Assembly: GCA_963828195.1 (NCBI GenBank)
Contig: CAWHDT010000005.1
Coordinates: 352,001 to 416,000, forward strand
Direction: 5' to 3'
Length of the DNA stretch: 64,000 nt
Origin: Candidatus Bathyarchaeota archaeon
Lineage (GTDB): Archaea; Thermoproteota; Bathyarchaeia; Bathyarchaeales; Bathycorpusculaceae
Shown here: piece by piece, positions 1 to 14,561 of the stretch
How positions within the stretch are numbered: the first letter of the stretch is position 1
Layout of the letters: each line of letters starts with the position of its first letter
Program-made: the position numbers and the translations under genes
The notes under the pieces: model-generated
What the model was told of the DNA's origin: nothing
Databases searched by the model: none
The model's input: the letters and a program-made list of their open reading frames with translations, nothing else

Positions 1-381
1 ATCGCGAAAAGCCTCAAAATATCTTTAGGAACAGTTCATAAGCGTGTAGAAGACTTAGAGAATAGAGGGCTCTTGAAGGGATACACCGCAGTTCTGGATC
101 CAGTCAAGCTTGGGTACGCAATGTCAACTGTTATTTTCATTCAAACTGAGGGTGGGCATCTTGATTATGTTGAAAACATTATTTCAAAGGCAGCTAATGT
201 AACGTCAATATACGAAATCACTGGGGACTTCGACTTAGTCATAGTTGCAAAGTTTAAAGATAGCGCCGACTTGAGTTCTTTCATCAAACAATTGCTAACA
301 ATTCGCCATGTCCGAAGAACCGTTACAGACGTAGCCCTCAACATCATAAAAGAAGAAGCCTCTCCAGCGGTGATTGGATAA
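1..381 (+). CDS. Lrp/AsnC family transcriptional regulator (5' truncated by window edge)
   Basis: Frame open from base 1 (IAKSLKISLGTVHKRVEDLENRGLLKGY = HTH), followed by a RAM domain (YEITGDFDLVIV ... RRTVT). Confidence 0.9.
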   Translation: MAKSLKISLGTVHKRVEDLENRGLLKGYTAVLDPVKLGYAMSTVIFIQTEGGHLDYVENIISKAANVTSIYEITGDFDLVIVAKFKDSADLSSFIKQLLTIRHVRRTVTDVALNIIKEEASPAVIG

Positions 382-778
382 AATGAATATTCAAAATAAA
401 TGATAACAAAATTTATGAAACGATGTGAAAAACCTGAAGAACAACTGCAACCTTCAACTCTCAGGCTTGCCCTAAAATGGGTAGAGTCTTAACAGCTAAC
501 TCAAACGAAATTTTTCGACAAAACTAGCTCGGTTTGCTACCGTTGGGATTGCCAAAGACCAATGGATGATCAAGCGGAAGTCTCCCTTTTTTATGAGAAA
601 AACGAACCAGGGCATAGAAAAATGGCCTGGCGAAGTTGTTTCGGTGAATTTAGCGGCATTACCTCCGAACTCCTTTTTTACAACATTGCCTTGAATGAAA
701 TACTTCCAGTGATAAATATGATAAAAATTTATTTCATGCTAACAATAAGGCTGCCAAATGATTCACTATTCATAATTA

Positions 779-817
779 TTCTTAATATTTGTGAACATTT
801 CTCAAATCGTTTTATAT
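779..817 (+). promoter_or_regulatory. Operator + TATA box, copy 1
   Basis: TTCTTAA-TAT-TTGTGAA-CA, 13 nt, TTTATAT; same architecture at five other promoters. Confidence 0.7.
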
Positions 818-869
818 TCTTATCCTAACACTCAGATTTCAGAGCAAACAAAAAATAGGATGAAATGGC

Positions 870-995
870 ATGTTGGATTTGGAAACTCCATTATTGGCGC
901 GTTTAAGCTCGTTCACCTTACCCTTCATGTTTACGGGGTATGACAGTTTGTGCATGCAACAAGCAATAAGAGCAACATCCGGCAAGGTGGATTAA
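870..995 (+). CDS. Small ORF, 41 aa (MLDLETPLLARLSSFTLPFMFTGYDSLCMQQAIRATSGKVD), paralog of 3080-3178
   Basis: Follows operator/TATA copy 1; aligns at nucleotide and peptide level with the ORF at 3051-3178 (-). Confidence 0.45.
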   Translation: MLDLETPLLARLSSFTLPFMFTGYDSLCMQQAIRATSGKVD

Positions 996-997
996 AC

Positions 998-1177
998 GTG
1001 TATAGTACGATAATTTTGGATTGCCAAACCAAAACAGCCTTCTCCTGCTCGGAGGACTGCATCGCTTTCAAAACATGCACTGCACGCAAGAAGCGTCCAC
1101 CAATCCGCTCTCGCAGACATTTAGTAGTCATTGAAGCTCCAACCGAGAAAACGAGAAAAAACAGGCTGAAAATCTAA
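998..1177 (+). CDS. Small Cys-rich basic hypothetical protein, 59 aa
   Basis: GTG start after GGTGG; four Cys (C-x7-C-x3-C-x5-C) then a Lys/Arg-rich tail. Confidence 0.4.
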   Translation: MYSTIILDCQTKTAFSCSEDCIAFKTCTARKKRPPIRSRRHLVVIEAPTEKTRKNRLKI

Positions 1178-1211
1178 CAAACAAATTAACTTATGGAAGA
1201 GTAAAAACGAA

Positions 1212-1337
1212 ATGAAAGTTGTTGCTGCATGGAGCGGCGGAAAAGACAGTTGCTACGCGTACTATTTGGCAATGCAACAAGGCCACGAGGTAATCAACCT
1301 TTTAATATATGAGCTTAATACGCTTCAAACTTATTAA
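1212..1337 (+). pseudogene. N-terminal fragment of a diphthamide-synthase-like (Dph6/MJ0570) PP-loop ATPase
   Basis: MKVVAAWSGGKDSCYAYYLAMQQGHEVINLL then a stop after 41 codons; SGGKDS PP-loop. Confidence 0.75.
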
Positions 1338-1403
1338 GAAGACAGATTTAAATAAAATTGCAGGTGAGATTCACCTCATCATTCAAAGGGGTCTTTGGGC
1401 TTT

Positions 1404-2962
1404 TCAACATTTGATTGGCGACAGACCAGTAACCTCATAAAGCTTCTTCATGTCTATATTTGCTCTTACGATTTCGGCTAACTTATCCAAATTTTCTTCC
1501 CAGATCTTCTGAATGTTTTCTTCACGGTGAAAACTTGTCTTTAGCTGTTTTTTTCTAAGAGAAACCCAACTAAAGCCCGCCTTAGCGGTGGATCATCGAA
1601 GAGACCGTGAAGATATGTACCAAAGATAACGCCGGCATTATCACATGCGCCGTCAAGTCTCTCGAATGTGTTGTCGTCACGCTTTACTACCTTAAAGATC
1701 GGACGGGCTTTTTCGCCTAGTACAGTTGAACCCATATGGATTTCGTAACCCACAATCCTTTGCCCCCTCACTTGATCGAATATATGGCCCGATCCTATTA
1801 TCTCGGCCTCAAGCTGATTGGTGGTCTTGCCATAGAAATCGAATTTTGTTGAGACGTCAAGCAGCCCTAGCCCTCTAATAGTTGTGGGAAGGCCACCTTC
1901 AATTCCCTTTTCATCCACCAGCTCTTTACCGAGCATCTGGAATCCGCCACAAACACCAATCACTGGAACACCTTTCCCCGCAAGGTCAACGATTTTTTCT
2001 GCGAACCCAGACTGTTTCAGCCACAGAAAGTCTTGGATAGTGTTCTTGGTTCCAGGTATGACAATGGCATCCGGCGAGCCCAATTCCCGTGTTGACCCGA
2101 CAAAGTTCACTTTTACGTTTGGTTCGATTTCTAACGGGTGGAAATCCGTGAAATTTGAAATCATGGGCAGACGGATAACGGCAATTTCGACATTTGTCCC
2201 AGTGTGCGCAACAGTTTTTTCCATTAGTCCTATTGAATCTTCATCAGGGAGGACAAGTCCTTCAATACGAGGAATTGCTCCAACTATGGGCCATCCAGTT
2301 TTCTCTTCGATGATTGAAGAGCATGGCTTGAGAAAATCTTTTCGTCCCTCCCATTTATTGATTATCACTCCTTTGATTCTGTTTCTGCTGTCTTCGTCAA
2401 GCAACTCATGGATGCCGACGACGGAAGCCATAGCCCCTCCTCTGGCGCAGTTTATATCCGCAACCAATAAAACAGGAGCCTCAGCTATTTCTGCCGTCTT
2501 CATGTTAACAACGCTTACATTAAAGTAATCGTCCGTGGGGCATCCCGCTCCTTCAATGACTACTACGTCAGACTCCGACTTCAGTCGCTCAAGGGATTCC
2601 TCAATCACTTTGGTCAAAAGCGCAGCAAATTTTCCATGCTGCCAGTAGTCATCAACCGCGACATCGCAGTACGGCTTTCCGTGAATTATCAACTGAATGT
2701 CTTTTCCTATTTCCTTCGGTTTCACTAGGATCGGGTTCATGTCAACAGTGGGTTCTACGCAGGCGGCCATTGCCTGCAGAACTTGGATTCTGGCCATTTC
2801 GCCGTCTTTGGCGACGAAGGAATTTAGGGACATGTTCTGCGACTTGAATGGGACGACCTTGTACCCATCTTTGGCGAAAATTCTGCATAACGCTGCAACT
2901 ATTATGCTTTTCCCAACTTGGCTTCCGGTACCTTGAATCATTAGAGTCTTTGCTTTCTTCAT
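1404..2962 (-). CDS. cobQ: Cobyric acid synthase, with a frameshift in an A7 run near the 3' end
   Basis: MIQGTGSQVGKS, PFKSQNMSLNS, ISNFTDF, PGTKNT, GVCGGFQMLG, GTYLHG. The ORF stops at 1541 but the typical C-terminal helix (LDKLAEIVRANIDMKKL) continues in another frame to 1404. Confidence 0.9.
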
Positions 2963-3079
2963 TACTAAACCCCGTTCGGTATACTAAACACCTTTTCTAC
3001 ATAACCTTTGAACTTCTACATAGAATTGGCAACCAAAACAATCGTGCTATTTAAGTCAAGCCTCTATTGATCTTTACTC

Positions 3080-3178
3080 TTAGAACTTGTTGCACCCGAA
3101 CGAACTCCTATTCCTCATGAATGTAAAAGGTGTGGTAAACAAGTCTGGACCTGCGCATACAAAGATTCCCAAATTCAA
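3080..3178 (-). CDS. Small ORF, 32 aa (probably frameshifted; alternative frame ends at 3051), paralog of 870-995
   Basis: TTG start after GGTGA; LNLGIFVCAGPDLFTTPFTFMRNRS; shifted frame gives VQQVLRVKINRGLT. Confidence 0.4.
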   Translation of the reverse strand: MNLGIFVCAGPDLFTTPFTFMRNRSSFGCNKF

Positions 3179-3232
3179 CTGTCTTTCACCCAATTTTTTG
3201 TTTTGGCTCTAAAATTAAATTGATATTTCATT

Positions 3233-3271
3233 ATATAAGGTGATTTGAGAAATGTTCATAAATATTAAGAA
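3233..3271 (-). promoter_or_regulatory. Operator + TATA box, copy 2 (upstream of small ORF and cobQ)
   Basis: Minus strand TTCTTAA-TAT-TTATGAA-CA, 13 nt, CTTATAT. Confidence 0.7.
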
Positions 3272-3593
3272 TAGTTAAACGATCAAACACCATTTTAAAG
3301 ATTATTTGAATCAACATCTATGTTGCCTGCAACAATTCCCTATCCGACTTGACTTCTCTTGTTGAGAAAAAAATAGGAAAAGTCATAAGGCAATAAGCAA
3401 ATGTAGCTAAAAACATAGTTGTGCATAGTTTGACTAAGGATACTGGTTTCTTAAATCATTTTTCAAAACCTGAACGTGATGTAAATGTTTTCTTTTCCGG
3501 TAAAACTATCTTTAACGGTAATGCTTTTTTCATTTTTAATCAGTATAACTTTTGGAAGAAAACTAGAGTTTTTTTAAAAAAGAAAAGGGGGGA

Positions 3594-5201
3594 TTAAGTT
3601 TTTTTCCAGAACTTGATTGTTCTGGATTTGGTGGTTTTGGTCGCGGTTGTGTCATCTTCGTCTTTGCCTGGGAATGGGAACAAGCCAGAGGGCTTAGATT
3701 TTGAGTTAACGCGGAAATAGACCAAGCCTATTGCCAACCATATTGCGGTGCCGACTATAGCAAAGATACCTTCCGATGACGACGCCCCTCCACCAGCAAA
3801 GCTAAGATACACAATAGTAGCCATCATAACGGCGTTAGCAGCGAAGCCTGCAATTGGAACTACTTTGCGTTTGAAGATGTTACTGCGCTCTTTCGTAAAT
3901 GCGATCAGTGCCACGATGTTTGTTATTGCATAGAGCAGGAAGGTGCCAAAGTTTGATAGCAATGTGATTGATGTTAGGTTTGTGATTGTCAGCACTCCGA
4001 AAGATCCTATAGCTGCTGCAACAGCTGTCATTATCCAAATTCCAATCCCTGGAGTTTGGTATTTTGGGTTTAGCTTGCTTAGGTGATACGGTACTTCAGT
4101 GTCTCGGCTGATTGCGTAGGTTACTCTAACTCCGGTGTTCATGCACGCAAGGGTAGTGCCTAATATTGCAGCGGCCACAATCGCAGCTATTATTAACTCC
4201 AGTGTGAATCCGTTGCCGCCGAGAAATACGTTTCCGAGGTTGCGAACCATATCGCCGATGGGGGCGCTTGAGACTGCGGCAGCGCTAAATCCTCTGTATA
4301 CTTGGCCATTTTGCGTTATGGTGTAGCTGCTGTTCATCCAAGCTTCAGCGCCGAAGTACTCGAACAGATACGCGAAAAGACCTTGGATAACTAGCGATAG
4401 TATGATTGCTTTAGGAACCGTCTTAGGATCTTTGGCTTCTGCGGTGTATGCTGTTGCGGATTCGAATCCGACTAGTACTAAGATAGCGATGGTCGCTTGA
4501 AATAGCACAGTGCTAATGTCATGAGGTGTAACTATTCCGCCTAAGCTCGTGAACGTGAAGCTTACGTGTTGAGGGTTGGTAAAACGGAATGCTAATGCCA
4601 TGCCGGTGATAACGACAAGCATACCGATTTGAACTATGTTGAGGAGCAGGTTTGTTTTTGTTGATCCTTGAATTCCGCGGTAAGCTATCGCGCCTGTGAC
4701 AACAGCAAATAAGCAAGCGATACCAATTTCGCCTAAGGGTGAAATGCTGAAGCCAAGTACCGATAAAATCCATGTGAGCAGGATAGACATAGCTGCAACC
4801 ATGACTCCAGGGTAGACCCAGTAGTAGAGGTGAGAAATCCAGCCGACACCGAACTTTGCGTTTCTCGCTGAAGTGTTGCTTGCACCGTTGTCTAGCAAGG
4901 CTCTTTGAGCAAAGTAATACGAGCTGCCGGGACCTGCATCAGGGTAACGCCGAGCTAGCCACGAATAAGACGCGGCAGTTAGGAACGCCAAAATTAATGC
5001 TAATGTAAGGCCAAAAAATATGTCGTTGGCGGTTGAAGCGCCAGACGGGGTGGTCTGAGCTGCGTTTATCTGGAAAGTGAGCCACAAGAACGCTCCTGGA
5101 GCTATTAAGGCCATGGCGTTTATCGTTATACCGCCTAGGCTGAGAGTTTTTTTCAATTGAGTTTTGTTTTGCGTCTGTGAACCTGTTGAATCAGTAGAGA
5201 T
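3594..5201 (-). CDS. APC-family amino acid/amine permease (start ATC 5201 or TTG 5156)
   Basis: About 12 hydrophobic helices; NAMALIAPGAF, GPGSSY and GFESATAYTAEAKDP motifs. Confidence 0.9.
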   Translation of the reverse strand: MSTDSTGSQTQNKTQLKKTLSLGGITINAMALIAPGAFLWLTFQINAAQTTPSGASTANDIFFGLTLALILAFLTAASYSWLARRYPDAGPGSSYYFAQRALLDNGASNTSARNAKFGVGWISHLYYWVYPGVMVAAMSILLTWILSVLGFSISPLGEIGIACLFAVVTGAIAYRGIQGSTKTNLLLNIVQIGMLVVITGMALAFRFTNPQHVSFTFTSLGGIVTPHDISTVLFQATIAILVLVGFESATAYTAEAKDPKTVPKAIILSLVIQGLFAYLFEYFGAEAWMNSSYTITQNGQVYRGFSAAAVSSAPIGDMVRNLGNVFLGGNGFTLELIIAAIVAAAILGTTLACMNTGVRVTYAISRDTEVPYHLSKLNPKYQTPGIGIWIMTAVAAAIGSFGVLTITNLTSITLLSNFGTFLLYAITNIVALIAFTKERSNIFKRKVVPIAGFAANAVMMATIVYLSFAGGGASSSEGIFAIVGTAIWLAIGLVYFRVNSKSKPSGLFPFPGKDEDDTTATKTTKSRTIKFWKKT

Positions 5202-5328
5202 CTATCTTCCCTCCTCTGAGTGGTAAGCTGGAAATAGTGGAAAATATTTTTTTGCCTTTTTTAACGAGTAGAGTGTCGGGCTTTCTGCTTGATTTGTTTA
5301 CATTTGGAGATTCCATTCTCTTTTTCAT
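5191..5328 (-). CDS. Upstream small basic ORF, 45 aa, overlapping the permease start
   Basis: ATG about 45 nt after the TATA box; MKKRMESPNVNKSSRKPDTLLVKKGKKIFSTISSLPLRGGKIDLY. Confidence 0.3.
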   Translation of the reverse strand: MKKRMESPNVNKSSRKPDTLLVKKGKKIFSTISSLPLRGGKIDLY

Positions 5329-5371
5329 CTAGTAACACCGAACTTTTAGTCAATAAAGCAAGTCCAGCGAA

Positions 5372-5410
5372 ATATAAACCTAATTAAGATTTGTTCATAA
5401 CTTTTATGAT
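5372..5410 (-). promoter_or_regulatory. Operator + TATA box, copy 3 (permease promoter)
   Basis: Minus strand ATCATAA-AAG-TTATGAA-CA, 13 nt, TTTATAT. Confidence 0.75.
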
Positions 5411-5840
5411 AAACAAAAATAATGTTCAATTAAAATAATTTATATTAGACATTTGGCTGGTAATTGCCGCTTTTCTTTGTCACCTTGGTTTGAAACATTT
5501 CGTTGGTGAAGCAGGCTATCGCTCATTTATGAGTTCTTTGATCGGTCAAGGTATTGAAAGTCATCAAGTTGACGTTTGGCAAAGAGGTTGCAAAGAACTT
5601 GTGCCTCTTAAAGGGATAAATCAAATAATGTTGGTAGTGCAGTAATCACAATGAGTTGTTCTCCGTCCGCCGTCTGGAGAAAAATCAAATTTAAGACACC
5701 AGTATCAACTTTGAGCTTTGGGACGGCCAATGAGGTTTTCTGGGGTGTCCAACACTTTCAAGATTTCGAGGGAGAGTTATGATAACGACAATCAAACATT
5801 TAATTGGCTTAAACTACGGTGCGGTGCTATATGTTTCTGT

Positions 5841-8621
5841 TTAAGTGTGGTCGTGCATTTTAAGCATTTCAGGACTGGTTTTAGTGAACTTGCGGCTGAA
5901 GAACTTTCTTATTTCCTCTGCGCAAACAACGATTACTGCTAGTGATACTAGAAATGCCCAGTTGCTGAGGGAGAGAGCAGTTGTTGTGAAGATGTGCTGC
6001 ATAAAAGGAACATAGATGAGTAGTGAGAGGATTCCGATTTGTGCAGTTATGCCGAAGATTATCCATTTGTTTGTTTTCAAGCTTGTTTTAAAGATTGATT
6101 GCTTGCTGGTTCGACATGCTAAGACATTGCCTGCTTGAGCTACTACTATACCAGCAAAAGTCATGGTTACACCTTTGGCGTAAACTCCGCTAGTATAAAA
6201 TGAACTGGTACTTGTTAAGACCATTCCAAAGTGCCATCCACCCGCAATCCAAGCGTTAAGGCACCCAATCATAGCTCCTGTAGCAATGATAACCCCGACG
6301 AACACCGAACGAAGTAGAACTTTACGGGTAAACAGTCTCTCCTTGATGCTTCTGGGTGGCTCTTGCATAATCCCTGCTTCAGGTGGTTCACGGCTTAAAG
6401 CCAAAGAGGGAATAACATCAATCGCAAGGTCAATGGCTAAAACTTGGGGCACAAGCAACGGCAAAGGAATACCTAAAACGGCGAACAATATAAACGGAAT
6501 CAGTTCAGCCCAGTCATGCGAAAACACATAAACAATAAACTTACGAATATTTTCATAAATTGCCCTCCCAGACTCAATGGCTTTCACAATGGATGCAAAG
6601 CTATCATTGAGCAAAACAATGTCGGCGGCTTCACGAGCAACATCAGTACCTGACGCCCCCATGGCAACACCGATGTCAGCTTCCTTAAGCGAAGGCGCAT
6701 CATTTGCTCCGTCACCAGTAACCGCAACAATTTCTCCGCCCTTTTTGACCACTGTAACTATACGAAGTTTCTGTTCAGGTGAAACACGAGCAAAAATCAC
6801 GTTGCCTTTGCGAACTTCATCTACGATTGCTTGGTCGCTTAAATCATCCAAGTCCACCCCGCGAATAATCTGATGACGTTCCTGGTCGACGATTCCAACT
6901 TCTTGAGCAATAGCCTGAGCGGTTGGACCGTAATCCCCCGTGATAATGACGGTTTTCACTCCTGCTCGCTTTGCCTCCAAAACGGCATCTTTAACTTCTA
7001 TTCGTGGAGGATCACGCATTGCGGCCAACCCTACAAAAATTAGGTTTTTTTCTACTTCATCTTTGATGTATGCGCTTTTGGGGATTTCCTTGTATGCTGC
7101 GGCAATGACGCGCAACCCCTCAGTGGCAAACTCATGAATCTTAGCTTCAATAACCTTAATGGTCTCTTCGTTTAATTCTTCAACTTTATCATCAACAAGC
7201 ATTTCGGTACAGATGTCTAAAATGTTTCTTGGAGCACCTTTTGTGTAAATGCAAACGTCACCGTTCATCTTATGAACGGTGCTCATTCGTTTTCGCTCAA
7301 AACTGAACGGTAAAACATGCACAATTGGTTTCTCTTCTAAAGCATTTTGAACGTTCACATTCGATTTTAGCGCAGCAACAAGTAAAGCGCCGTCAGTTGG
7401 GTCACCTATCACACCCCAATTTCTGTTTCTATCTGAAGGAGGATCAAGCTTTGCTCCGTTACAAAGTGCAGTAATCTCAATAAGCTTTTCCAGAGAGCCC
7501 GTTTGCCCCTCTTGTAGTGGCTGACCGTTTTTGGTGAAATCGCCTTCAGGTTTGTAGCCTAAGCCCGAAACGTCCACGACAGAATCGTAAACCCACAGCT
7601 TGTTTACAGTCATTTCGCCCTTCGTTATTGTGCCAGTCTTATCAGTGCAGATTACTGTAACGCTGCCTAAGGTTTGCACAGCTGATAACCGCTTTACCAA
7701 AACGTTCTGTTTTACCATTTTTAGAACGTTGATGGCTAAGGCGCTTGAAACGGTGACTTGTAAACCTTCAGGAACGCAAGCCACCATTACACCAATCATG
7801 AAGAAAATGCCTGTAGCTAAAGTAACATGTAAGAAGAAAAAACTAAAGACAAAAAATATCGTACCCACTGCAACAGCGATTATGAAATCATACTTTGCTG
7901 TTAAAGTGATTTCTTTCTGGAGCGGGCTTTCTTCTTCATGAATTGTCTGAGTTAAACTGGCGATTCTTCCAAACTGGGTATTCATTCCTGTTGAGTAAAC
8001 AACTGCTTTTCCTTGACCTTTGGCGACGCTTGTACTCATGAAAACGAGGTTTGGCGAATACAAGTACGTTTTCTCAGCTGTGTTAACGACCTCGGCAACA
8101 CGCGGTTGCGGTTCCGACTCACCTGTTAAAGGAACGTTATTGGTCCATAAGTCAAAAGCTTCAATTAAGCGTGCGTCCGCCGGTACACGGTCGCCTTCTT
8201 CCAGAGATATAATGTCCCCTGGGACAATTTCTCTGACTGAGATTTTTTTATGTTCTCCGTCTCGGATTACTTTGGCAAACTCGGGCATCCAGCTTTTGAG
8301 GGTTGCCATAGCTTTTTCTGCACGGGACTCTTGAAACATGCTTACAAAAATGTTTACAAAAACAACTGCAAGTATAATTAAGGCAGTTTCTAGACTGCCG
8401 CTTATGTAAGATAAAACGCTTGCAACTAGCAACAAAATGCCGAAAAGGTCGCGAAGGTGATGGATAAATTTGTGGATAAAAGGTATTTGCCTTTTTTCGG
8501 AAAGTTGGTTGTAGCCATATTTCGTCAGACGAAGTTTTGCCTCGTCGCTTGACAGGCCATTGGGTGATGTCTTTAGGTCGTCGAAGACCTCGTTAATTGG
8601 CAAAGAAGCAGCTTTCTCCAA
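5841..8621 (-). CDS. Cation-transporting P-type ATPase (type II, IIC-like)
   Basis: TGES, CVPEGL, DKTGT, KGAP, TGDGANDAP; M6 LAIDLAID resembles Na/K-type pumps. Confidence 0.92.
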   Translation of the reverse strand: MEKAASLPINEVFDDLKTSPNGLSSDEAKLRLTKYGYNQLSEKRQIPFIHKFIHHLRDLFGILLLVASVLSYISGSLETALIILAVVFVNIFVSMFQESRAEKAMATLKSWMPEFAKVIRDGEHKKISVREIVPGDIISLEEGDRVPADARLIEAFDLWTNNVPLTGESEPQPRVAEVVNTAEKTYLYSPNLVFMSTSVAKGQGKAVVYSTGMNTQFGRIASLTQTIHEEESPLQKEITLTAKYDFIIAVAVGTIFFVFSFFFLHVTLATGIFFMIGVMVACVPEGLQVTVSSALAINVLKMVKQNVLVKRLSAVQTLGSVTVICTDKTGTITKGEMTVNKLWVYDSVVDVSGLGYKPEGDFTKNGQPLQEGQTGSLEKLIEITALCNGAKLDPPSDRNRNWGVIGDPTDGALLVAALKSNVNVQNALEEKPIVHVLPFSFERKRMSTVHKMNGDVCIYTKGAPRNILDICTEMLVDDKVEELNEETIKVIEAKIHEFATEGLRVIAAAYKEIPKSAYIKDEVEKNLIFVGLAAMRDPPRIEVKDAVLEAKRAGVKTVIITGDYGPTAQAIAQEVGIVDQERHQIIRGVDLDDLSDQAIVDEVRKGNVIFARVSPEQKLRIVTVVKKGGEIVAVTGDGANDAPSLKEADIGVAMGASGTDVAREAADIVLLNDSFASIVKAIESGRAIYENIRKFIVYVFSHDWAELIPFILFAVLGIPLPLLVPQVLAIDLAIDVIPSLALSREPPEAGIMQEPPRSIKERLFTRKVLLRSVFVGVIIATGAMIGCLNAWIAGGWHFGMVLTSTSSFYTSGVYAKGVTMTFAGIVVAQAGNVLACRTSKQSIFKTSLKTNKWIIFGITAQIGILSLLIYVPFMQHIFTTTALSLSNWAFLVSLAVIVVCAEEIRKFFSRKFTKTSPEMLKMHDHT

Positions 8622-8954
8622 ATAAATTCCGCCAACCTCACGATTGACTGCCGCTTAGTCCCATTAAACTCTTAATTAATTTTTTAGTGGTTGGCCCTTG
8701 TATGTTTAAATGAATGAAACAGTATCTTTGTTGCATACCTTGTGAGTTACCTTGTCTTAGTAATATATCCTTCAGAAAATCTTTTGAAAGTCTCCCTTTC
8801 ATCTTCCAGCTTATCGATTTTTTCAAACCATTATGGTGACAGTACGACATCTAATGTTGTTATTTCTCCTTTCTGTTTAAAGCAATCCGTTAGAGGGATT
8901 ATGTATTGGCTCTTAGTGCAGTATTTCCACTATTTCAGAATACCAGACCAACGC

Positions 8955-9287
8955 TTAGCTTAAGGGAACGCTGCCACTTTCGTGATGAACATTATATGCG
9001 GCTTGTAGCAATCGATTTACACGACAAAGCTCAGGATAGATTTTTTTGTATTCTTCCGATGCATAGTATTCTATTTCACTGGGATAGGCCTTTGCATGTT
9101 GATTTATGTATTTCAGTGCTTCGTGTATGTTCTTGAATTCCAAGTTGCTCATCTTCCAATTTAATGGACATAAAATGGGTTTCTTGTATCAGACTTTGAT
9201 TTTGAGTTCTAACTTGATGCTATAGGCTATAAAGGCAATTGAACCGATTATCGCGGTTATTGAAGCTATATCAATTATTCCAAACAT
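8955..9287 (-). pseudogene. Probable membrane-anchored small protein split by a frameshift (32 aa 9189-9287 + 65 aa 8955-9152)
   Basis: MFGIIDIASITAIIGSIAFIAYSIKLE hydrophobic segment; a 1-nt deletion near 9207 would join it to SKSKSDTRKPILCPLNWK-MSNLEFKN. Confidence 0.45.
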
Positions 9288-9330
9288 ATTTTCACCGTTT
9301 TACTTCTCACTAAGTTAGTTGCTTAGTTAA

Positions 9331-9369
9331 ATATAAATGCAGTTGTGATTTGTTCATAATTTTTCATAA
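9331..9369 (-). promoter_or_regulatory. Operator + TATA box, copy 4
   Basis: Minus strand TTATGAA-AAA-TTATGAA-CA, 13 nt, TTTATAT. Confidence 0.7.
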
Positions 9370-9580
9370 ACACTCGACATGCGTCTAAACTATAACAAGA
9401 AAAATTTTTATGAAATAAAGCATTAAAGCGCGCTTGTTGATGTAACTAAAAACGGAACCGTGTTTTATGCTGCGGAAGTACTTGAGCGTACAATCAAACT
9501 AAACAGTTAGCTAACTAATACATTAAGATGCGGTTGCCTGTCCATATTTTTCGGAGCATTACTTTACAAATTTTTTATTT

Positions 9581-9619
9581 TTCATAATTTTTATGAACAA
9601 ATCTCAATTACGTTTAAAT
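9581..9619 (+). promoter_or_regulatory. Operator + TATA box, copy 5 (glnA promoter; perfect palindrome)
   Basis: TTCATAA-TTT-TTATGAA-CA, 13 nt, TTTAAAT, about 50 nt before the glnA ATG. Confidence 0.8.
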
Positions 9620-9670
9620 GTGATCGTTTCTCCCTTTGTCTCAAAATATCTTGAATAAATGGTGAAGTGA

Positions 9671-11137
9671 ATGGAAAAAAATGATTCCGTGAAAAAAGCC
9701 ACAGAGAGCCTAAAAACCAACAATGTTAGGTGGGTGCATTCCGCCTTCGTTGATATTCGTGGAATACTGCAAGACATGGTGCTCCCGGCAAGGGATTATC
9801 TTAGCGGCGAAGCATTTACTGCAGGAGTGGGTTTTGACGGTTCTTCTGTTAGAGGCTTCAAATCCATTGAAGAATCAGACATGATTTTCATGCCTGACGC
9901 AAAAACCCTATCAATAATGCCTTGGGTCACCGATGAAAAGCAAAAAAGTGCTATAATTCTCGGAGACGTCTACGAAGCATTCGGGGGAAAAGAGCCATCA
10001 GTCGTTGACCCAAGAAGCTTTGCAGCAAAAAGAGCCGTAGCAGAAGCCAAAGCAATGGGTTACACAGGATTCTTCGCTCCCGAACTGGAGTTCTTCGTCT
10101 TTTCCTCAATTGACCCAACTAAACTCACTTGGGATCTTTGGGCAGCTCCAAAAAGTGGCGAAGGAGACGCGTGGGGAGCCCCAAGAGTGGTACCTCAGTC
10201 ACCAGAAATTACGCCAGGTAATTACGTGATAAGACCAAAGGAAGCATACTACAGAACCCCGCCCGAAGACACAACCGTCGAATTCAGGAATGAGGTTTCG
10301 CAAGTCCTAGAAGATGACTTTGGATTAACCATTGAAAAGCATCACCATGAGGTAGCCACCGTTGGTCAAGTGGAAATTGACTACAAATACGGAGAACTCT
10401 TAGATACGGCGGATAGGGCGATGTACTACAAATTTGTTGCCAAAAACATCGCTCACAAACATGGCTTAATTGCAACTTTCATGCCAAAACCAGTTTACCT
10501 TGACAATGCAAGCGGGATGCACGTACACCAGTCGATATGGTCTGGAGGAAAAACCGCCATGTACGATGAAGCAGACGGATACGCTGAGCTAAGCCAAACT
10601 GGAAGATACTACGTTGGAGGCCTTTTGGAGCATGCAAAAGCCTTAACCGCGGTCTGCTGCCCAACGGTAAGCTCCTATAAGCGTCTTGTACCAGGTTTTG
10701 AAGCGCCGATTTACGTAGTTTGGTCTAGACGTAACAGGTCAGCATTAGCCCGCATACCAATGTACTACAAAGGACCAGAGTTTGCAGCACAAAAAAGAGT
10801 CGAGTACCGAGGAGTAGACCCTTCATGCAACCCCTACTTGGCGTTTGCATGCCTCTTGACGGCCGGGCTTGATGGCGTCAAAAAGAAGATAGACCCCGGC
10901 GACCCAGTTGACGAAGACATCTACAAGTTATCTCCACAAAAACGCAAATCCCTCGGCATCAAAGAACTCCCAACCACGCTTAAGGACGCATTGGAAGAGC
11001 TAAAAAGCGACGAAGTACTTCAAAAGGCACTTGGAAGCCACATATTCGACGCCTTTATAGATCTTAAAACCAACGATTGGAACCAGTACTGCCTCTACGT
11101 GTCACCATGGGAGATAATGAAATACCTTGACTACTAA
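9671..11137 (+). CDS. glnA: Glutamine synthetase type I
   Basis: FDGSS, ESDM, PELEFF, HHEVA, TFMPKP, SGMHVHQS, SYKRLVPGFEAP, RNRS, NPYLA. Confidence 0.97.
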   Translation: MEKNDSVKKATESLKTNNVRWVHSAFVDIRGILQDMVLPARDYLSGEAFTAGVGFDGSSVRGFKSIEESDMIFMPDAKTLSIMPWVTDEKQKSAIILGDVYEAFGGKEPSVVDPRSFAAKRAVAEAKAMGYTGFFAPELEFFVFSSIDPTKLTWDLWAAPKSGEGDAWGAPRVVPQSPEITPGNYVIRPKEAYYRTPPEDTTVEFRNEVSQVLEDDFGLTIEKHHHEVATVGQVEIDYKYGELLDTADRAMYYKFVAKNIAHKHGLIATFMPKPVYLDNASGMHVHQSIWSGGKTAMYDEADGYAELSQTGRYYVGGLLEHAKALTAVCCPTVSSYKRLVPGFEAPIYVVWSRRNRSALARIPMYYKGPEFAAQKRVEYRGVDPSCNPYLAFACLLTAGLDGVKKKIDPGDPVDEDIYKLSPQKRKSLGIKELPTTLKDALEELKSDEVLQKALGSHIFDAFIDLKTNDWNQYCLYVSPWEIMKYLDY

Positions 11138-11170
11138 AACTAAATGAGCTAAAAAAAAGAAGAACCGAAC

Positions 11171-12151
11171 ATGGCACCAAACAAATCTGAATATGAGAAA
11201 CTGCTTCCAGAAATTCGGGCTCTAACAGACAAAGTGGTCATGCAAAATATGGCTGACGGAATTCTATTCTCAGCTGGAGTCAACACAAGCGTAATTGCCT
11301 ATCACGCAGTCAAATACAAACCTAAAATACCCACTTTGACCATGTCTTTCAAGCATGGCCAACCCAAAGACACTGAATACGTTAAAAAAATGGTGGATTT
11401 CCTCCACCTTCAACATGAATTCCACAGTTTTGACCGCGCCGACATAGTTGCTTCAGTCGAGCAAATTGTTCAGGTCCTAAAGATTTTTGACCCCATGGAA
11501 ATAAGAAACTGTGTTTCGGTTTACATTGGCTTAACTATTGCAAAGATTGAAGGCATAAAAAGCGTTTTCACAGGAGATGGAGTAGATGAGCTTTTCGGTT
11601 ATCCTTGGATGTGGCGCCTATCTGATACTGAACTGACGAAAAAATTCGAGGACATGTGGGGAGAAATGGCTTTCTCTTCTATTCCCATGGGCAAATCATT
11701 AGGCGTTGAAGTGAAGCCGCCTTTTCTTGACTCTAAGTTCATGGAGTACGCAAAGAAACTGCCTAACTATTTGAAGATCAACGAAGAAAACGGCGTGAAA
11801 TACAGCAAATGGATTCTTCGCAAAGCATATGAAGATCTGATTCCAAAAGAAGTAATTTGGCGACCGAAAGCACCATTGGAACAAGGAACTGGCACTACAG
11901 TTCTCACAGATTACTTTGGCAAGGAAATTTCAGACACAGAGTTTGCTGAGAGGCGAAAGCTGATCCTCGAGAAAGATGATGTTTTCATAACAAGCAAAGA
12001 ACAGCTGCTATACTACGACCTTTTCAGAAAACACTTCGCAAAACCATCAAGCGTCTACAGTGAAAAAATAGGCAGGCAATGTCCCAAATGTAAAAGCTAT
12101 GTGAAAACGGAGCTTGGATTCTGCAAGGTTTGCGGGAATTACCCCATTTAA
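11171..12151 (+). CDS. Asparagine-synthetase C-terminal-domain protein with C-terminal zinc ribbon (no glutaminase domain)
   Basis: TGDGVDELFGY, PFLD, KWILR, WRPK; CPKC-x10-CKVC tail; variant PP-loop SAGVNT. Confidence 0.85.
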   Translation: MAPNKSEYEKLLPEIRALTDKVVMQNMADGILFSAGVNTSVIAYHAVKYKPKIPTLTMSFKHGQPKDTEYVKKMVDFLHLQHEFHSFDRADIVASVEQIVQVLKIFDPMEIRNCVSVYIGLTIAKIEGIKSVFTGDGVDELFGYPWMWRLSDTELTKKFEDMWGEMAFSSIPMGKSLGVEVKPPFLDSKFMEYAKKLPNYLKINEENGVKYSKWILRKAYEDLIPKEVIWRPKAPLEQGTGTTVLTDYFGKEISDTEFAERRKLILEKDDVFITSKEQLLYYDLFRKHFAKPSSVYSEKIGRQCPKCKSYVKTELGFCKVCGNYPI

Positions 12152-12212
12152 TTCTCCTTTTTTTGGAAACTATCTTAAAATATATCTTTCAGATTTTTTA
12201 GACGGTGGACTT

Positions 12213-13886
12213 ATGTGTGGAATAGTTGGGATCTTTAATTTGACTGAACCAGTCTCTAGTGCACGGGACAAGGCGCTTAGGATGGCTGCTAAGATAAGGC
12301 ATAGAGGTCCAGACTGGAGTGGCATTTACAGTGATGATAAGGCAATTCTTGCTCATGAAAGACTCTCAATCGTTGACGTTGAACATGGTGCACAACCCTT
12401 GTTCGACAAGCTTAATGGTAACGTTCTGGCTGTGAACGGCGAAATTTACAACCACTTGCTTCTTCGTAATGAATTGAAAAAAAACCATTTGTGGCAGACA
12501 AAATCAGACTGCGAAGTAATCCTGTATCTCTACGATGAGTATGGCCCAGAGTTTTTGAACATGCTAAACGGCATGTTTGCTTTCATCCTCTATGACAAGA
12601 CAAAAGGGCAGTATTTCATTGCGAGAGACCACATTGGAATCATTCCGCTGTACGTAGGGTGGAATAACAAAGGAACTTTTTATGTAGCCAGCGAAATGAA
12701 AGCCCTAAATGATTATTGTACCAATGTCAAAGAGTTCCCTCCGGGACATTATCTAAATGGTAAAGGGAAAGATTTCGTTAGGTGGTATAAACCTGAGTGG
12801 GCTGAGAAAATTCCAACAAAAAAACTTGTTCTTCCAGACTTGAGAAAAGCATTGGAGAAGTCGGTGAAAGGACAAATGATGTCGGACGTGCCCTACGGCG
12901 TTCTTATCTCGGGCGGACTCGATTCTTCGCTAATAGCTGCTATCGCTTCGAAGTTCAGAAAGAAGAGGGTTGAATCTGGCGACAAAGAGGAAGCATGGTG
13001 GCCACGTTTGCACTCATTCGCAGTGGGTTTGACGGACTCGCCTGACCTGAAATACGCAAAGAAGGTTGCCGACTACATTGGAACCGTGCATCATGAAATA
13101 ATTTTCACTATACAGGAAGGTTTTGACGCGATAGAGGATGTAATCTACCATTTGGAAACATTTGATGTTACCACTATTCGTGCTGCTACACCGATGTATT
13201 TGATGGCTAGAAAAATAAAATCTATGGGTATCAAAATGGTCTTATCCGGTGAAGGCGCAGACGAAGTATTTGGCGGATACCTGTATTTCCATAAAGCACC
13301 AAATAAACAGGAATTCTACGAAGAAACAGTAAGAAAACTATTCTTGCTAAGCAAATATGATTGCCTGCGAGCAAACAAAGCAACCGCTGCTTGGGGCGTT
13401 GAAACACGGGTGCCTTTTTTAGATAAGGAGTTTTTGGATTTTGCCATGGGCTTTGATCCACAAGAGAAAATGTGCTCAGGTGGCAAAATCGAAAAATATG
13501 TGTTGAGAAAAGCGTTTGAAGGCTACATTCCTGACGAGATTCTTTGGAGACAAAAAGAGCAGTTCTCCGACGGCGTTGGCTACGGATGGATAGACTACCT
13601 CAAAAAATACGCCGAAAGCGCAGTAACAGATGCAATGATGGCGAACGCTAAACTTAAGTTCTCTACACAAACGCCATCATCAAAAGAGGAATATTACTAC
13701 AGACAGATATTTGACAGCTACTTTACATGTCCCACTGCCGCATTAACTGTTCCTGTGGGTCCAACAATTGCCTGTTCCACCCCAACGGCCTTCAGATGGA
13801 GCAAAGAATTTGCAAAAATGGCCGACCCATCAGGCAGATCCGTCAAAGAACACAACCAAACATTAACCGAAAACAAGAAACAATAA
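12213..13886 (+). CDS. asnB: Asparagine synthase (glutamine-hydrolysing), bacterial AsnB type
   Basis: N-terminal MCGI, HRGPD, HERLSIVD, NGEIYN, SGGLDS, WWPRLHSF, SGEGADE, WRQKEQFSDGVG. Confidence 0.96.
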   Translation: MCGIVGIFNLTEPVSSARDKALRMAAKIRHRGPDWSGIYSDDKAILAHERLSIVDVEHGAQPLFDKLNGNVLAVNGEIYNHLLLRNELKKNHLWQTKSDCEVILYLYDEYGPEFLNMLNGMFAFILYDKTKGQYFIARDHIGIIPLYVGWNNKGTFYVASEMKALNDYCTNVKEFPPGHYLNGKGKDFVRWYKPEWAEKIPTKKLVLPDLRKALEKSVKGQMMSDVPYGVLISGGLDSSLIAAIASKFRKKRVESGDKEEAWWPRLHSFAVGLTDSPDLKYAKKVADYIGTVHHEIIFTIQEGFDAIEDVIYHLETFDVTTIRAATPMYLMARKIKSMGIKMVLSGEGADEVFGGYLYFHKAPNKQEFYEETVRKLFLLSKYDCLRANKATAAWGVETRVPFLDKEFLDFAMGFDPQEKMCSGGKIEKYVLRKAFEGYIPDEILWRQKEQFSDGVGYGWIDYLKKYAESAVTDAMMANAKLKFSTQTPSSKEEYYYRQIFDSYFTCPTAALTVPVGPTIACSTPTAFRWSKEFAKMADPSGRSVKEHNQTLTENKKQ

Positions 13887-14078
13887 TCCAAACTCTCACC
13901 CCAACACGAATGGATCGATGGAATTTTCTCTTGCCTCATTAATTGCTGTCAAAAACGATTAACTTTAGCAACCGCCTGTTTCACTAATTCTTTCGATGTT
14001 CTATAAAAACTATTTTCGTTTTATCTGCTGAAAAGTTAAAAAAAGTTTGAAGTTTTTATAAGTTTCGTGCCCTTGAAG

Positions 14079-14321
14079 CTACATCGGTAATAGCACAATG
14101 GAGGTTTCTGTTCGGATGACGTTGGGGTCTTTTTCAATTATTTTGTAAACGACTTGGTTTATGTCTTCAAGTTCTGGAGCTTCCAAAATTATTATTGCGT
14201 CGTATCGACCGAAGATGGCATCCGCAGATAATATGCAGGTTCCTTTGACTTTGCCTTTTATTCTTTTAACGACTTCTAATGATGTACCTGGTTTGGTGCT
14301 TAATAATATGTAGGCTTTCAA
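14079..14321 (-). CDS. Stand-alone Lrp/AsnC ligand-binding (RAM) domain protein
   Basis: 80 aa, KAYILL ... IFGRYDAII ... IRTETSIV; no HTH. Confidence 0.85.
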   Translation of the reverse strand: MKAYILLSTKPGTSLEVVKRIKGKVKGTCILSADAIFGRYDAIIILEAPELEDINQVVYKIIEKDPNVIRTETSIVLLPM

Positions 14322-14419
14322 TTTTTTTTACCTCTTCGTTTTTAAATACCTGATTAAAGAATAAAGTAAGTAATCTTTTTTCCACACATATAAATCTTGT
14401 TTAGACATATGTTTAACTT

Positions 14420-14458
14420 TTAAGAATAAATATGAACAAAGCACAACTATATTTAAAT
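14420..14458 (+). promoter_or_regulatory. Operator + TATA box, copy 6
   Basis: TTAAGAA-TAA-ATATGAA-CA, 13 nt, TTTAAAT. Confidence 0.65.
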
Positions 14459-14501
14459 TCAGCTATACATCCATCTCATCATAAAATAAAATGGTGAAAA
14501 A

Positions 14502-14561
14502 ATGTTTGGAATAATTGATATGGCTTCAATAGGCATGATCTTAGAACACAGGGGGGATTAA
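14502..14561 (+). pseudogene. Truncated paralog of the MFGIID small membrane protein
   Basis: GGTGAAAAAATGTTTGGAATAATTGATATGGCTTCAATA nearly identical to the reverse complement of 9259-9296; stops after 19 codons. Confidence 0.55.

Follow-up and report, generated by a model that had tools for sequence, protein, structure and literature searches.

The NrpR regulon of methanogens places nif, glnA and amt under one operator at a fixed promoter position, with the operator sequences located either at the transcription start or beyond it. Ribbon-helix-helix (RHH) proteins such as Arc, CopG and MetJ bind arrays of short repeated sub-sites, with cooperative dimers about one helical turn apart, and RHH regulators of the NikR type have an added C-terminal domain. 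A third group, the archaeal Lrp/FFRP regulators, includes the activators Ptr2, LysM and Ss-LrpB, whose dimer site is described as directly preceding the promoter, with its position under tight constraint (PMC2995911). Here, we analyzed a 64,000-nucleotide stretch of a Bathyarchaeial genome (C5:352001-416000, hereafter the window), in which a conserved ~40 bp element stands upstream of the TATA boxes of glnA and of neighboring genes. G labels denote genomes (G000 is that of the window), L labels loci and g labels genera, with g1 being the genus of the window genome.

Bathyarchaeia are abundant and uncultured. According to a recent study (PMC11697101), no archaea outside the lineages of methanogens had before them been credited with confidence with a complete nitrogenase gene cluster; in the main text of that study, the words "Lrp" and "promoter" are both absent, and control of the nif cluster is not treated there. 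Our search of the open literature, supplements excepted, found no paper that describes the motif, a nitrogen regulon in Bathyarchaeia or an RHH protein as nitrogen regulator in archaea. As in the NrpR regulon, nif, glnA and amt share one operator at a fixed promoter position, and the present regulon, too, presumably answers to nitrogen status. However, the NrpR family (PF01995) had no match in G000, in a search that matched two methanogen reference genomes as controls. The NrpR operator GGAA-N6-TTCC, which the original prediction had already set aside as not matching, was found in none of the 19 aligned conserved blocks, and the present array lies upstream of TATA. We regard it as a transcription-factor regulon with a new operator and, probably, a new regulator family.

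Architecture and distribution of the element

The original prediction described six intergenic sites, each with a palindromic operator exactly 13 nt upstream of a TATA box. Written for matching as WTRTGAACA-N13-YTTAWAT, the pattern recovered all six in the window, against a mean of 0.00 and a largest count of 0 in 100 dinucleotide-preserving shuffles, and gave 14 matches across the whole of G000 (2.83 Mb, 9 contigs, 44% G+C, 96% complete). We built a 45-nt matrix from the 14 matches and ran it on the genome, which returned 25 hits above 12 bits in two score classes. The upper class comprises 19 sites scoring 27.8-55.4 bits, and the next hits score 22.0 and 15.6. Judged by the matrix, the genome holds at least 19 such promoters, so that a "six-promoter" regulon was an underestimate.

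The distance between operator and TATA box is fixed to the base. TGAACA and YTTAWAT were separated by 13 nt in 18 cases in the genome, compared with 0-3 for each of the remaining spacings between 6 and 21 nt, in agreement with the exact spacing first claimed for the window. Among 30 TGAACANNTCNNAA cores, YTTAWAT followed exactly 5 nt on in 15, and the other 15 had none within 30 nt. In each of the 19 G000 sites, and in every site that we saw in relatives, the array precedes TATA by the one distance. This is the promoter geometry of the archaeal activators Ptr2, LysM and Ss-LrpB, as described: a site just upstream of the TFB recognition element (BRE) and TATA, at a constrained distance (PMC2995911). 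At most sites a start codon follows 43-52 nt after TATA, in several cases with a GGTGA-type ribosome-binding site just before it, and it often opens a small open reading frame (ORF).

Alignment of the 19 sites gave the layout TTCATAA-N3-TTATGAA-CA(A/T)-(A/T)TC(A/T/C)(C/T)AA, followed after 5 nt by YTTAWAT. The layout contains three half-sites of 7 bp, each of the form TTNNNAA. They alternate in orientation, and because their starts are 10 bp apart, they fall on one face of the helix. The middle half-site is TTCATAA, as its reverse complement, in 11 of the 19 sites, and the CA step after TGAA is nearly invariant. The original prediction also noted that the 13-nt spacers resemble one another; the similarity is real, but it belongs to a third, TATA-proximal half-site and not to a spacer. 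This half-site fits WTCHYAA in 17/19 sites, whereas the distal one, which is the left half of the palindrome first described, does so in only 9/19. The proximal half-site ends 5 nt before YTTAWAT, and those 5 nt are the variable part of the block.

The half-sites form two overlapping dyads. The distal dyad, TTCATAA-WWW-TTATGAA, has the abcdeWWWedcba form of Lrp/FFRP boxes, with centers that are mostly A/T over the 19 sites, while the proximal dyad is centered on CAA or CAT with an invariant C. At glnA (TTCATAA-TTT-TTATGAA, window 9581-9597), all positions of the 17-bp dyad pair; at 9369 and 14420 it is degenerate, just as predicted, and the left element of 9369 is a direct copy. In 281 other TATA-bearing upstream regions of the genome, the sole preference before TATA was a weak one for A at -3 and -4, which sets the conserved block apart from the general BRE.

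We then followed the element across genomes by scanning with TGAACANNTCNNAANNNNNYTTAWAT. It was present at up to one mismatch in 17 of 18 congeneric genomes and in exact form in 42/60. Within the family, the exact pattern occurred in 41 of 97 genomes and at least seven genera (g1, g14, g17, g18, g24, g34 and g43), compared with 2 of 153 genomes from 11 other families of the order; one of these two out-of-family hits precedes an amt gene (L025). A reversed-pattern control matched none of 251 genomes, which speaks against an AT-rich background, an outcome that would have undone the original prediction.

Genes behind the element

In G000, the element precedes glnA2 with an Asn-synthase-domain gene and asnB, a cobQ-like gene, two paralogous APC permeases and a peptidase A4. 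A further target is nifH with a radical-SAM (NifB-like) gene, two nitrogenase component-1 genes and homocitrate synthase. Two RAM-only genes also lie behind it, one followed by kdpABC and a second RAM-only gene, the other by a zinc-ribbon ORF and a PHP protein. The remaining targets are LrpB, an Lrp gene beside nif, a second Lrp gene, LrpA, which reaches with its 3' end into the window (1-381), and at least four small-ORF families. In relatives, the gene behind the element is amt (L014, L020, L030, L032, L104, L111), a CitMHS carrier (L013, L033) or a RAM-only gene with kdpA (L029, L034, L106, L112), and we also found there the 32-aa and MxDL small ORFs and a conserved 176-aa protein. In other genera, the element is followed by a KaiC-like ATPase and then amt. 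With amt, glnA2-asnB, nifHBDK, kdp, permeases and RAM-only genes among the targets, a nitrogen-limitation regulon is the natural reading of the gene content. The nitrogen regulon originally proposed is thus well supported, with the motif before amt in relatives, before nifH in G000 and before glnA2-asnB.

Two targets deserve separate mention. The element precedes all four orthologs of the window glnA (in G000, G016, G064 and G032), as anticipated, and none of the 26 other glutamine synthetase (GS) loci that were fetched. This glnA2 is an extra copy: a paralog at C5:490995-492449, 83% identical, has no matrix hit. The 83%-identical copy is the one retained in most relatives, and a further GS-like gene of G000, at C5:493730-494605, is 43% identical to the window glnA. 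The predicted hits at amt were obtained in relatives but not in G000, where no matrix score exceeds 14 within 1.5 kb of the sole amt gene (C8:139722); unlike in relatives, amt is therefore not visibly part of the regulon.

PII accompanies nitrogen control in most diazotrophs. However, PII (PF00543) gave no match in the nif-bearing G000, although the control genomes matched. The G000 nif genes run nifH, NifB-like, nifD-like, nifK-like and then homocitrate-synthase-like on the minus strand at C7:179000-184650 (L004:2-5648), with no PII genes between them, and this order is the nifHBDK arrangement described for Bathy-6 metagenome-assembled genomes (PMC11697101). A close homolog of a linked protein is listed under "Candidatus Bathyarchaeota archaeon", and the assignment of G000 to a Bathy-6-type Bathyarchaeon is plausible. 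A single-domain KaiC-like ATPase (PF06745, ~256 aa) comes first in the motif-driven amt operons of L125-L133 (g14, g18, g24, g34, g43, g122), and it could be a nitrogen-signaling partner where PII is missing. G000 also has ~29 RAM-domain (PF01037) hits, many of them stand-alone, with four RAM-only genes.

Several small ORFs recur behind the sites. A 32-aa hydrophobic ORF, MFGIIDxAS, starts 43 nt after the TATA of several motif promoters; besides 9189-9287 (-) and 14502-14561 (+) in the window, the latter shortened to 19 aa, copies occur at C5:946442-946540 and in L010, L015, L017 and L108. Other recurring families begin MxDL... or MKKRMESPNV... (before APC permeases) or contain ...IPLFALCTSSLTAAFVYYN, and MxDL relatives stand behind "type B" sites, a spacer variant of the element, in C8 and in other genomes. 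Also behind "type B" motifs is a conserved protein of 176-197 aa (C8:131223-131753, equal to L005:7224-7754; L019, L021, L031, L107, L113); in G000, a 51-aa Cys-rich ORF (L005:6983-7138) lies between the site and this gene. Pfam and NCBIfam gave no match for the 176-aa protein, for an 81-aa ORF ahead of LrpA or for a 90-aa ORF behind the C8 site. Part of the window's island recurs in a second one, C5:937000-951000 (L003), where an APC permease and its accompanying small ORF, a RAM-only gene and an MFGIID ORF are joined by kdpABC and peptidase A4; this second island ends at a phage-integrase-family gene (L003:17675-19111).

Candidate regulators and competing explanations

Between LrpB and the nifH promoter, G000 encodes a 165-aa protein (C7:185031-185525), homologs of which (165-187 aa) align over an N-terminal RHH and a conserved C-terminal alpha/beta domain. 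The N-terminus matched Pfam RHH_1 at E 0.004 and a CopG profile at E 3.8e-4, and residues 1-48 of a structure model matched the RHH domains of PutA, NikR and Arc with Z 6-7; in databases, the homologs are named "hypothetical protein" or "CopG family transcriptional regulator". In genus g1, the RHH gene is present in 39 of 43 motif-bearing but only 4 of 18 motif-less genomes (Fisher p = 3e-7, shared ancestry ignored). In g17, the corresponding counts are 7/7 and 0/4, and in g14 all four motif-bearing genomes have the gene, with no motif-less genomes in the draw. The gene and the sites are also neighbors: of 65 genomes with the RHH gene, 25 have a site behind it in the same orientation, at ~50-310 nt where the distance was read. 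The layouts are RHH-[site]-nifHBDK in G000, RHH-[site]-kaiC-like-amt in other genera, and RHH-Lrp-[site]-amt in G011, G056 and, from its coordinates, likely G062. The protein is thus encoded both with and beside the sites. At the 11 loci from other genera, nifH was never beside the RHH gene; there the site is followed by the KaiC-like ATPase and amt. A second RHH copy in G000 (C7:325578-326054) had no matrix score above 5.2 bits nearby.

We slightly favor the view that the elements are composite promoter-operators of a nitrogen-limitation regulon, read by a dedicated ligand-sensing factor. This factor would bind the three-half-site array and control the assembly of TBP, TFB and RNA polymerase at ~19 promoters. 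The RHH protein is the most likely binder, with what we regard as an even chance of being the right one. One dimer would occupy each half-site, with the last half-site directly against the zone where TFB contacts BRE; the three half-sites fit the arrangement known for cooperative RHH dimers, and both the short repeated sub-sites and the addition of a C-terminal domain to an RHH N-terminus recall the NikR-type/RHH systems. The C-terminal domain may bind a small molecule in the manner of a sensor. A second, amino-acid-sensing layer would consist of the regulators that themselves have motif promoters, namely the RAM-only proteins and both Lrps. The constancy of the array, upstream of BRE/TATA in every case and at a spacing fixed to a single base, makes us lean towards activation by contact with TBP/TFB over repression by occlusion of BRE.

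Several observations weigh against this view. Four motif-bearing g1 genomes have no detectable RHH gene (G005, 92% complete; G040, 66%; G034; G049), and three or four others have the gene and no exact site (G009, G053, G054 and G039), although G039 has a one-mismatch site directly after its RHH gene. Co-occurrence can also arise if the RHH gene merely belongs to the same nitrogen gene package; moreover, related genomes are not independent, and few transcription factors were compared. The C-terminal domain had no Pfam or PDB sequence match and is not the NikR metal-binding domain. Its fold matches are weak: H-NOX at Z 8.1-8.6 over 73-84 residues, a range that is commonplace, then TRAPP-Bet3 (Z 6.5) and a YslB-like domain (Z 5.5), with designed proteins scoring as high. 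A model from 12 sequences was poor (predicted local distance difference test, pLDDT, 60.6); the better one, from 52 sequences (pLDDT 75.1), had no clear natural fold match, with Foldseek E values of 0.02-0.08 and template-modeling scores of ~0.3. Since the fold likeness is weak, we call this domain only a possible sensor domain. As for the sign of regulation, RHH proteins are mostly repressors, contrary to an activator, and the TATA boxes are near consensus and so unlike the weak promoters that need one. Finally, the distal dyad fits the form of an Lrp box as well as it fits an RHH array.

This last point leads to the reading in which Lrp/FFRP regulators bind the operator, here LrpA and/or LrpB and in relatives an amt-linked clade (clade I), and we consider it unlikely. 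Like Ptr2, an Lrp dimer would activate through TBP, bound to either of the overlapping 17-bp dyads, and RAM-only proteins would modulate the oligomer. The distal dyad does share the archaeal FFRP form abcdeWWWedcba, including the A/T-rich 3 bp center, as described (PMC2715240), but the distal half-site that a W-centered dyad requires is the least conserved part of the element, and a third half-site and an invariant CA step set the element apart from a single 13-17-bp box. Gene context speaks for Lrp: motif promoters precede both LrpA and LrpB, Lrp and RAM-only genes belong to the regulon, the Lrp system of the genome is expanded, and in 12 of 15 loci a clade-I Lrp gene is directly followed by a motif site, with amt as the downstream gene where this was read. 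Precedent also exists in Sulfolobus, where the glutamine-responsive Sa-Lrp is described as binding the control regions of glnA, gltB and gdhA, a comparable link to glutamine and ammonia assimilation genes; it also binds AT-rich sites in many promoters and wraps DNA (PMC3584215), whereas the present motif is sharply defined.

Distribution and DNA-contact residues both speak against the Lrp reading. A profile for clade I did not find a cognate Lrp wherever the operator occurs: the clade is absent from G000 and present in 15 of 60 congeneric genomes, all motif-bearing, or 15 of the 43 motif-bearing g1 genomes, so that it does not track the motif. A more widely conserved Lrp clade (C1:274470 type) occurs in motif-less genomes too. 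The original prediction named the Lrp gene at window 1-381 as candidate regulator, a choice that found no support: a close LrpA ortholog (72% identity) was seen in G016 only. A search of genome contigs with LrpA returned 10 loci, the best 55% identical and most of them distant Lrp homologs, several bacterial. The six positions equivalent to the DNA contacts of FL11 also differ among LrpA, LrpB and clade I (FSLGTH, LAPGTI and YSGVMS), while the operator is the same. Our own reading of the published FFRP contact code on LrpA, with FL11 positions taken from a PDB alignment, predicted three of five half-site bases, too weak an agreement to weigh for or against Lrp. LrpA is nevertheless a regulon member, because its own gene lies behind a motif promoter, and it is possibly a secondary regulator.

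A repressor reading keeps the same element and the same binder and reverses the sign, and we rate its probability a little below even. Under nitrogen sufficiency the factor would keep TFB from BRE, and a limitation signal would release it, as 2-oxoglutarate releases NrpR in methanogens. NrpR, to our knowledge the only well-studied archaeal nitrogen regulator, is a repressor, and so, typically, are RHH proteins. With the proximal half-site 5 nt from YTTAWAT, a bound protein would abut or overlap BRE; near-consensus TATA boxes also suit repression, as does the mere weak preference for A at -3 and -4 in general G000 promoters. However, most of the known repressors of archaea have their sites over TATA or downstream of it, whereas the present sites are all upstream at one spacing and never over or after it, and steric repression has no need of single-base precision. 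Two readings dispense with a separate regulator. It is very improbable that the 40 bp are simply an extended promoter for a specialized TFB or TBP paralog: the genome has three TFB paralogs and the conserved block reaches TATA, but conserved positions extend ~30 bp past BRE in repeated half-sites typical of an oligomeric DNA-binding protein, and the 5 nt directly before TATA, where BRE is expected, are the variable ones. Even less credible, to the point that we give it almost no weight, is a duplicated promoter cassette or mobile repeat without common regulation. Several G000 sites are indeed paralogous pairs in two duplicated islands, the second with an integrase gene beside it; yet the element precedes orthologous and non-orthologous nitrogen genes in at least seven genera with differing flanks, it always faces a gene with TATA at its 3' end, and conservation is limited to the half-sites and the TATA box.

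The window locus and its implications

The sites and genes of the window are collected in Table 1. The gene assignments of the original prediction (Lrp, CobQ-like, APC, P-type ATPase, GS, asparagine synthase and RAM-only) all hold by Pfam, and its caveat on duplication was apt: the sites at 779 and 3271 share ~33 identical bases, and those at 9369 and 14420 are near-copies, each followed by a small ORF of the same family. A paralog of site 3 precedes the second APC permease, at C5:939694, and whether the P-type cation ATPase is a regulon member is uncertain. The promoter of the LrpA operon has its motif at C5:351592, 409 nt before the window start, with a score of 39.9. Behind site 1, a 41-aa ORF at 1212-1337 (+) matches only the first 31 positions of PF01902 (diphthamide-synthase/PP-loop) and is probably a truncated gene remnant.

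Table 1. Positions of the element and of the main genes in the window
Feature	Position	Strand	Score	Pattern	Details
Site 1	777-821	+	48.2	789-817	Half-sites 779-785, 789-795, 799-805; YTTAWAT 811-817; spacer variant "type B" (TGAACATTTCTCAAA)
Site 2	3229-3273	-	46.6	3233-3261	Near-copy of site 1; faces cobQ-like gene
Site 3	5368-5412	-	53.3	5372-5400	Faces 45-aa ORF and APC permease
Site 4	9327-9371	-	51.7	9331-9359	Left element a direct repeat, not inverted; faces 32-aa ORF, two more small ORFs and P-type cation ATPase
Site 5 (glnA2 promoter)	9579-9623	+	51.7	9591-9619	Perfect left dyad; glnA ATG 49 nt after last TATA-box base
Site 6	14418-14462	+	47.5	14430-14458	Left element degenerate; faces 19-aa MFGIID-family ORF
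Possible weak seventh site	14384-14428	-	22.0		Faces RAM-only gene; TATA spacing standard
LrpA (Lrp/AsnC regulator), 3' part	1-381	+			PF01037, PF13412
41-aa small ORF, MxDL family	870-995	+			Behind site 1
cobQ-like glutamine amidotransferase	1541-2962	-			PF07685, PF01656
APC-family amino-acid permease	3594-5156	-			PF13520; preceded by 45-aa ORF 5191-5328 (-)
P-type cation ATPase	5841-8621	-			750 nt downstream of site 4, behind small ORFs
32-aa hydrophobic small ORF, MFGIID family	9189-9287	-			Behind site 4
glnA2, Asn-synthase-domain gene, asnB	9671-13886	+			9671-11137, 11171-12151, 12114-13886; Pfam
Stand-alone RAM-domain protein, 80 aa	14079-14321	-			PF01037

A possible seventh site lies between the two score classes, and its conservation is too low for it to be counted. 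It forms with site 6 a divergent promoter pair with one common outer half-site (window 14420-14426), which reads TTAAGAA or TTCTTAA depending on the strand; a second such pair occurs in G000 at C8:130605-130611. Since the outer half-site is common to both promoters, one bound unit could serve both directions.

The element provides a sequence-level handle on the nitrogen response of Bathyarchaeia, and it predicts which genes would be switched together, including unannotated small proteins and the kdp operon. As a tentative proposal, to which we give somewhat less than an even chance, Bathyarchaeia that fix nitrogen without NrpR and PII may run their whole nitrogen response (amt, glnA, nifHBDK, kdp and amino-acid uptake) through an RHH plus H-NOX/V4R-like one-component regulator that binds the three phased half-sites beside BRE and acts directly on TFB/TBP, with an Lrp/RAM-only tier downstream. 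The analysis names one particular protein that can be expressed as candidate regulator, and 45 bp of DNA as its target, so that biochemistry is possible without culturing the organism. If the RHH-sensor protein were confirmed, it would stand beside NrpR as an unrelated, second way for archaea to control nitrogen, and it would offer a clean model for how a bacterial-type factor beside BRE talks to the archaeal basal machinery.

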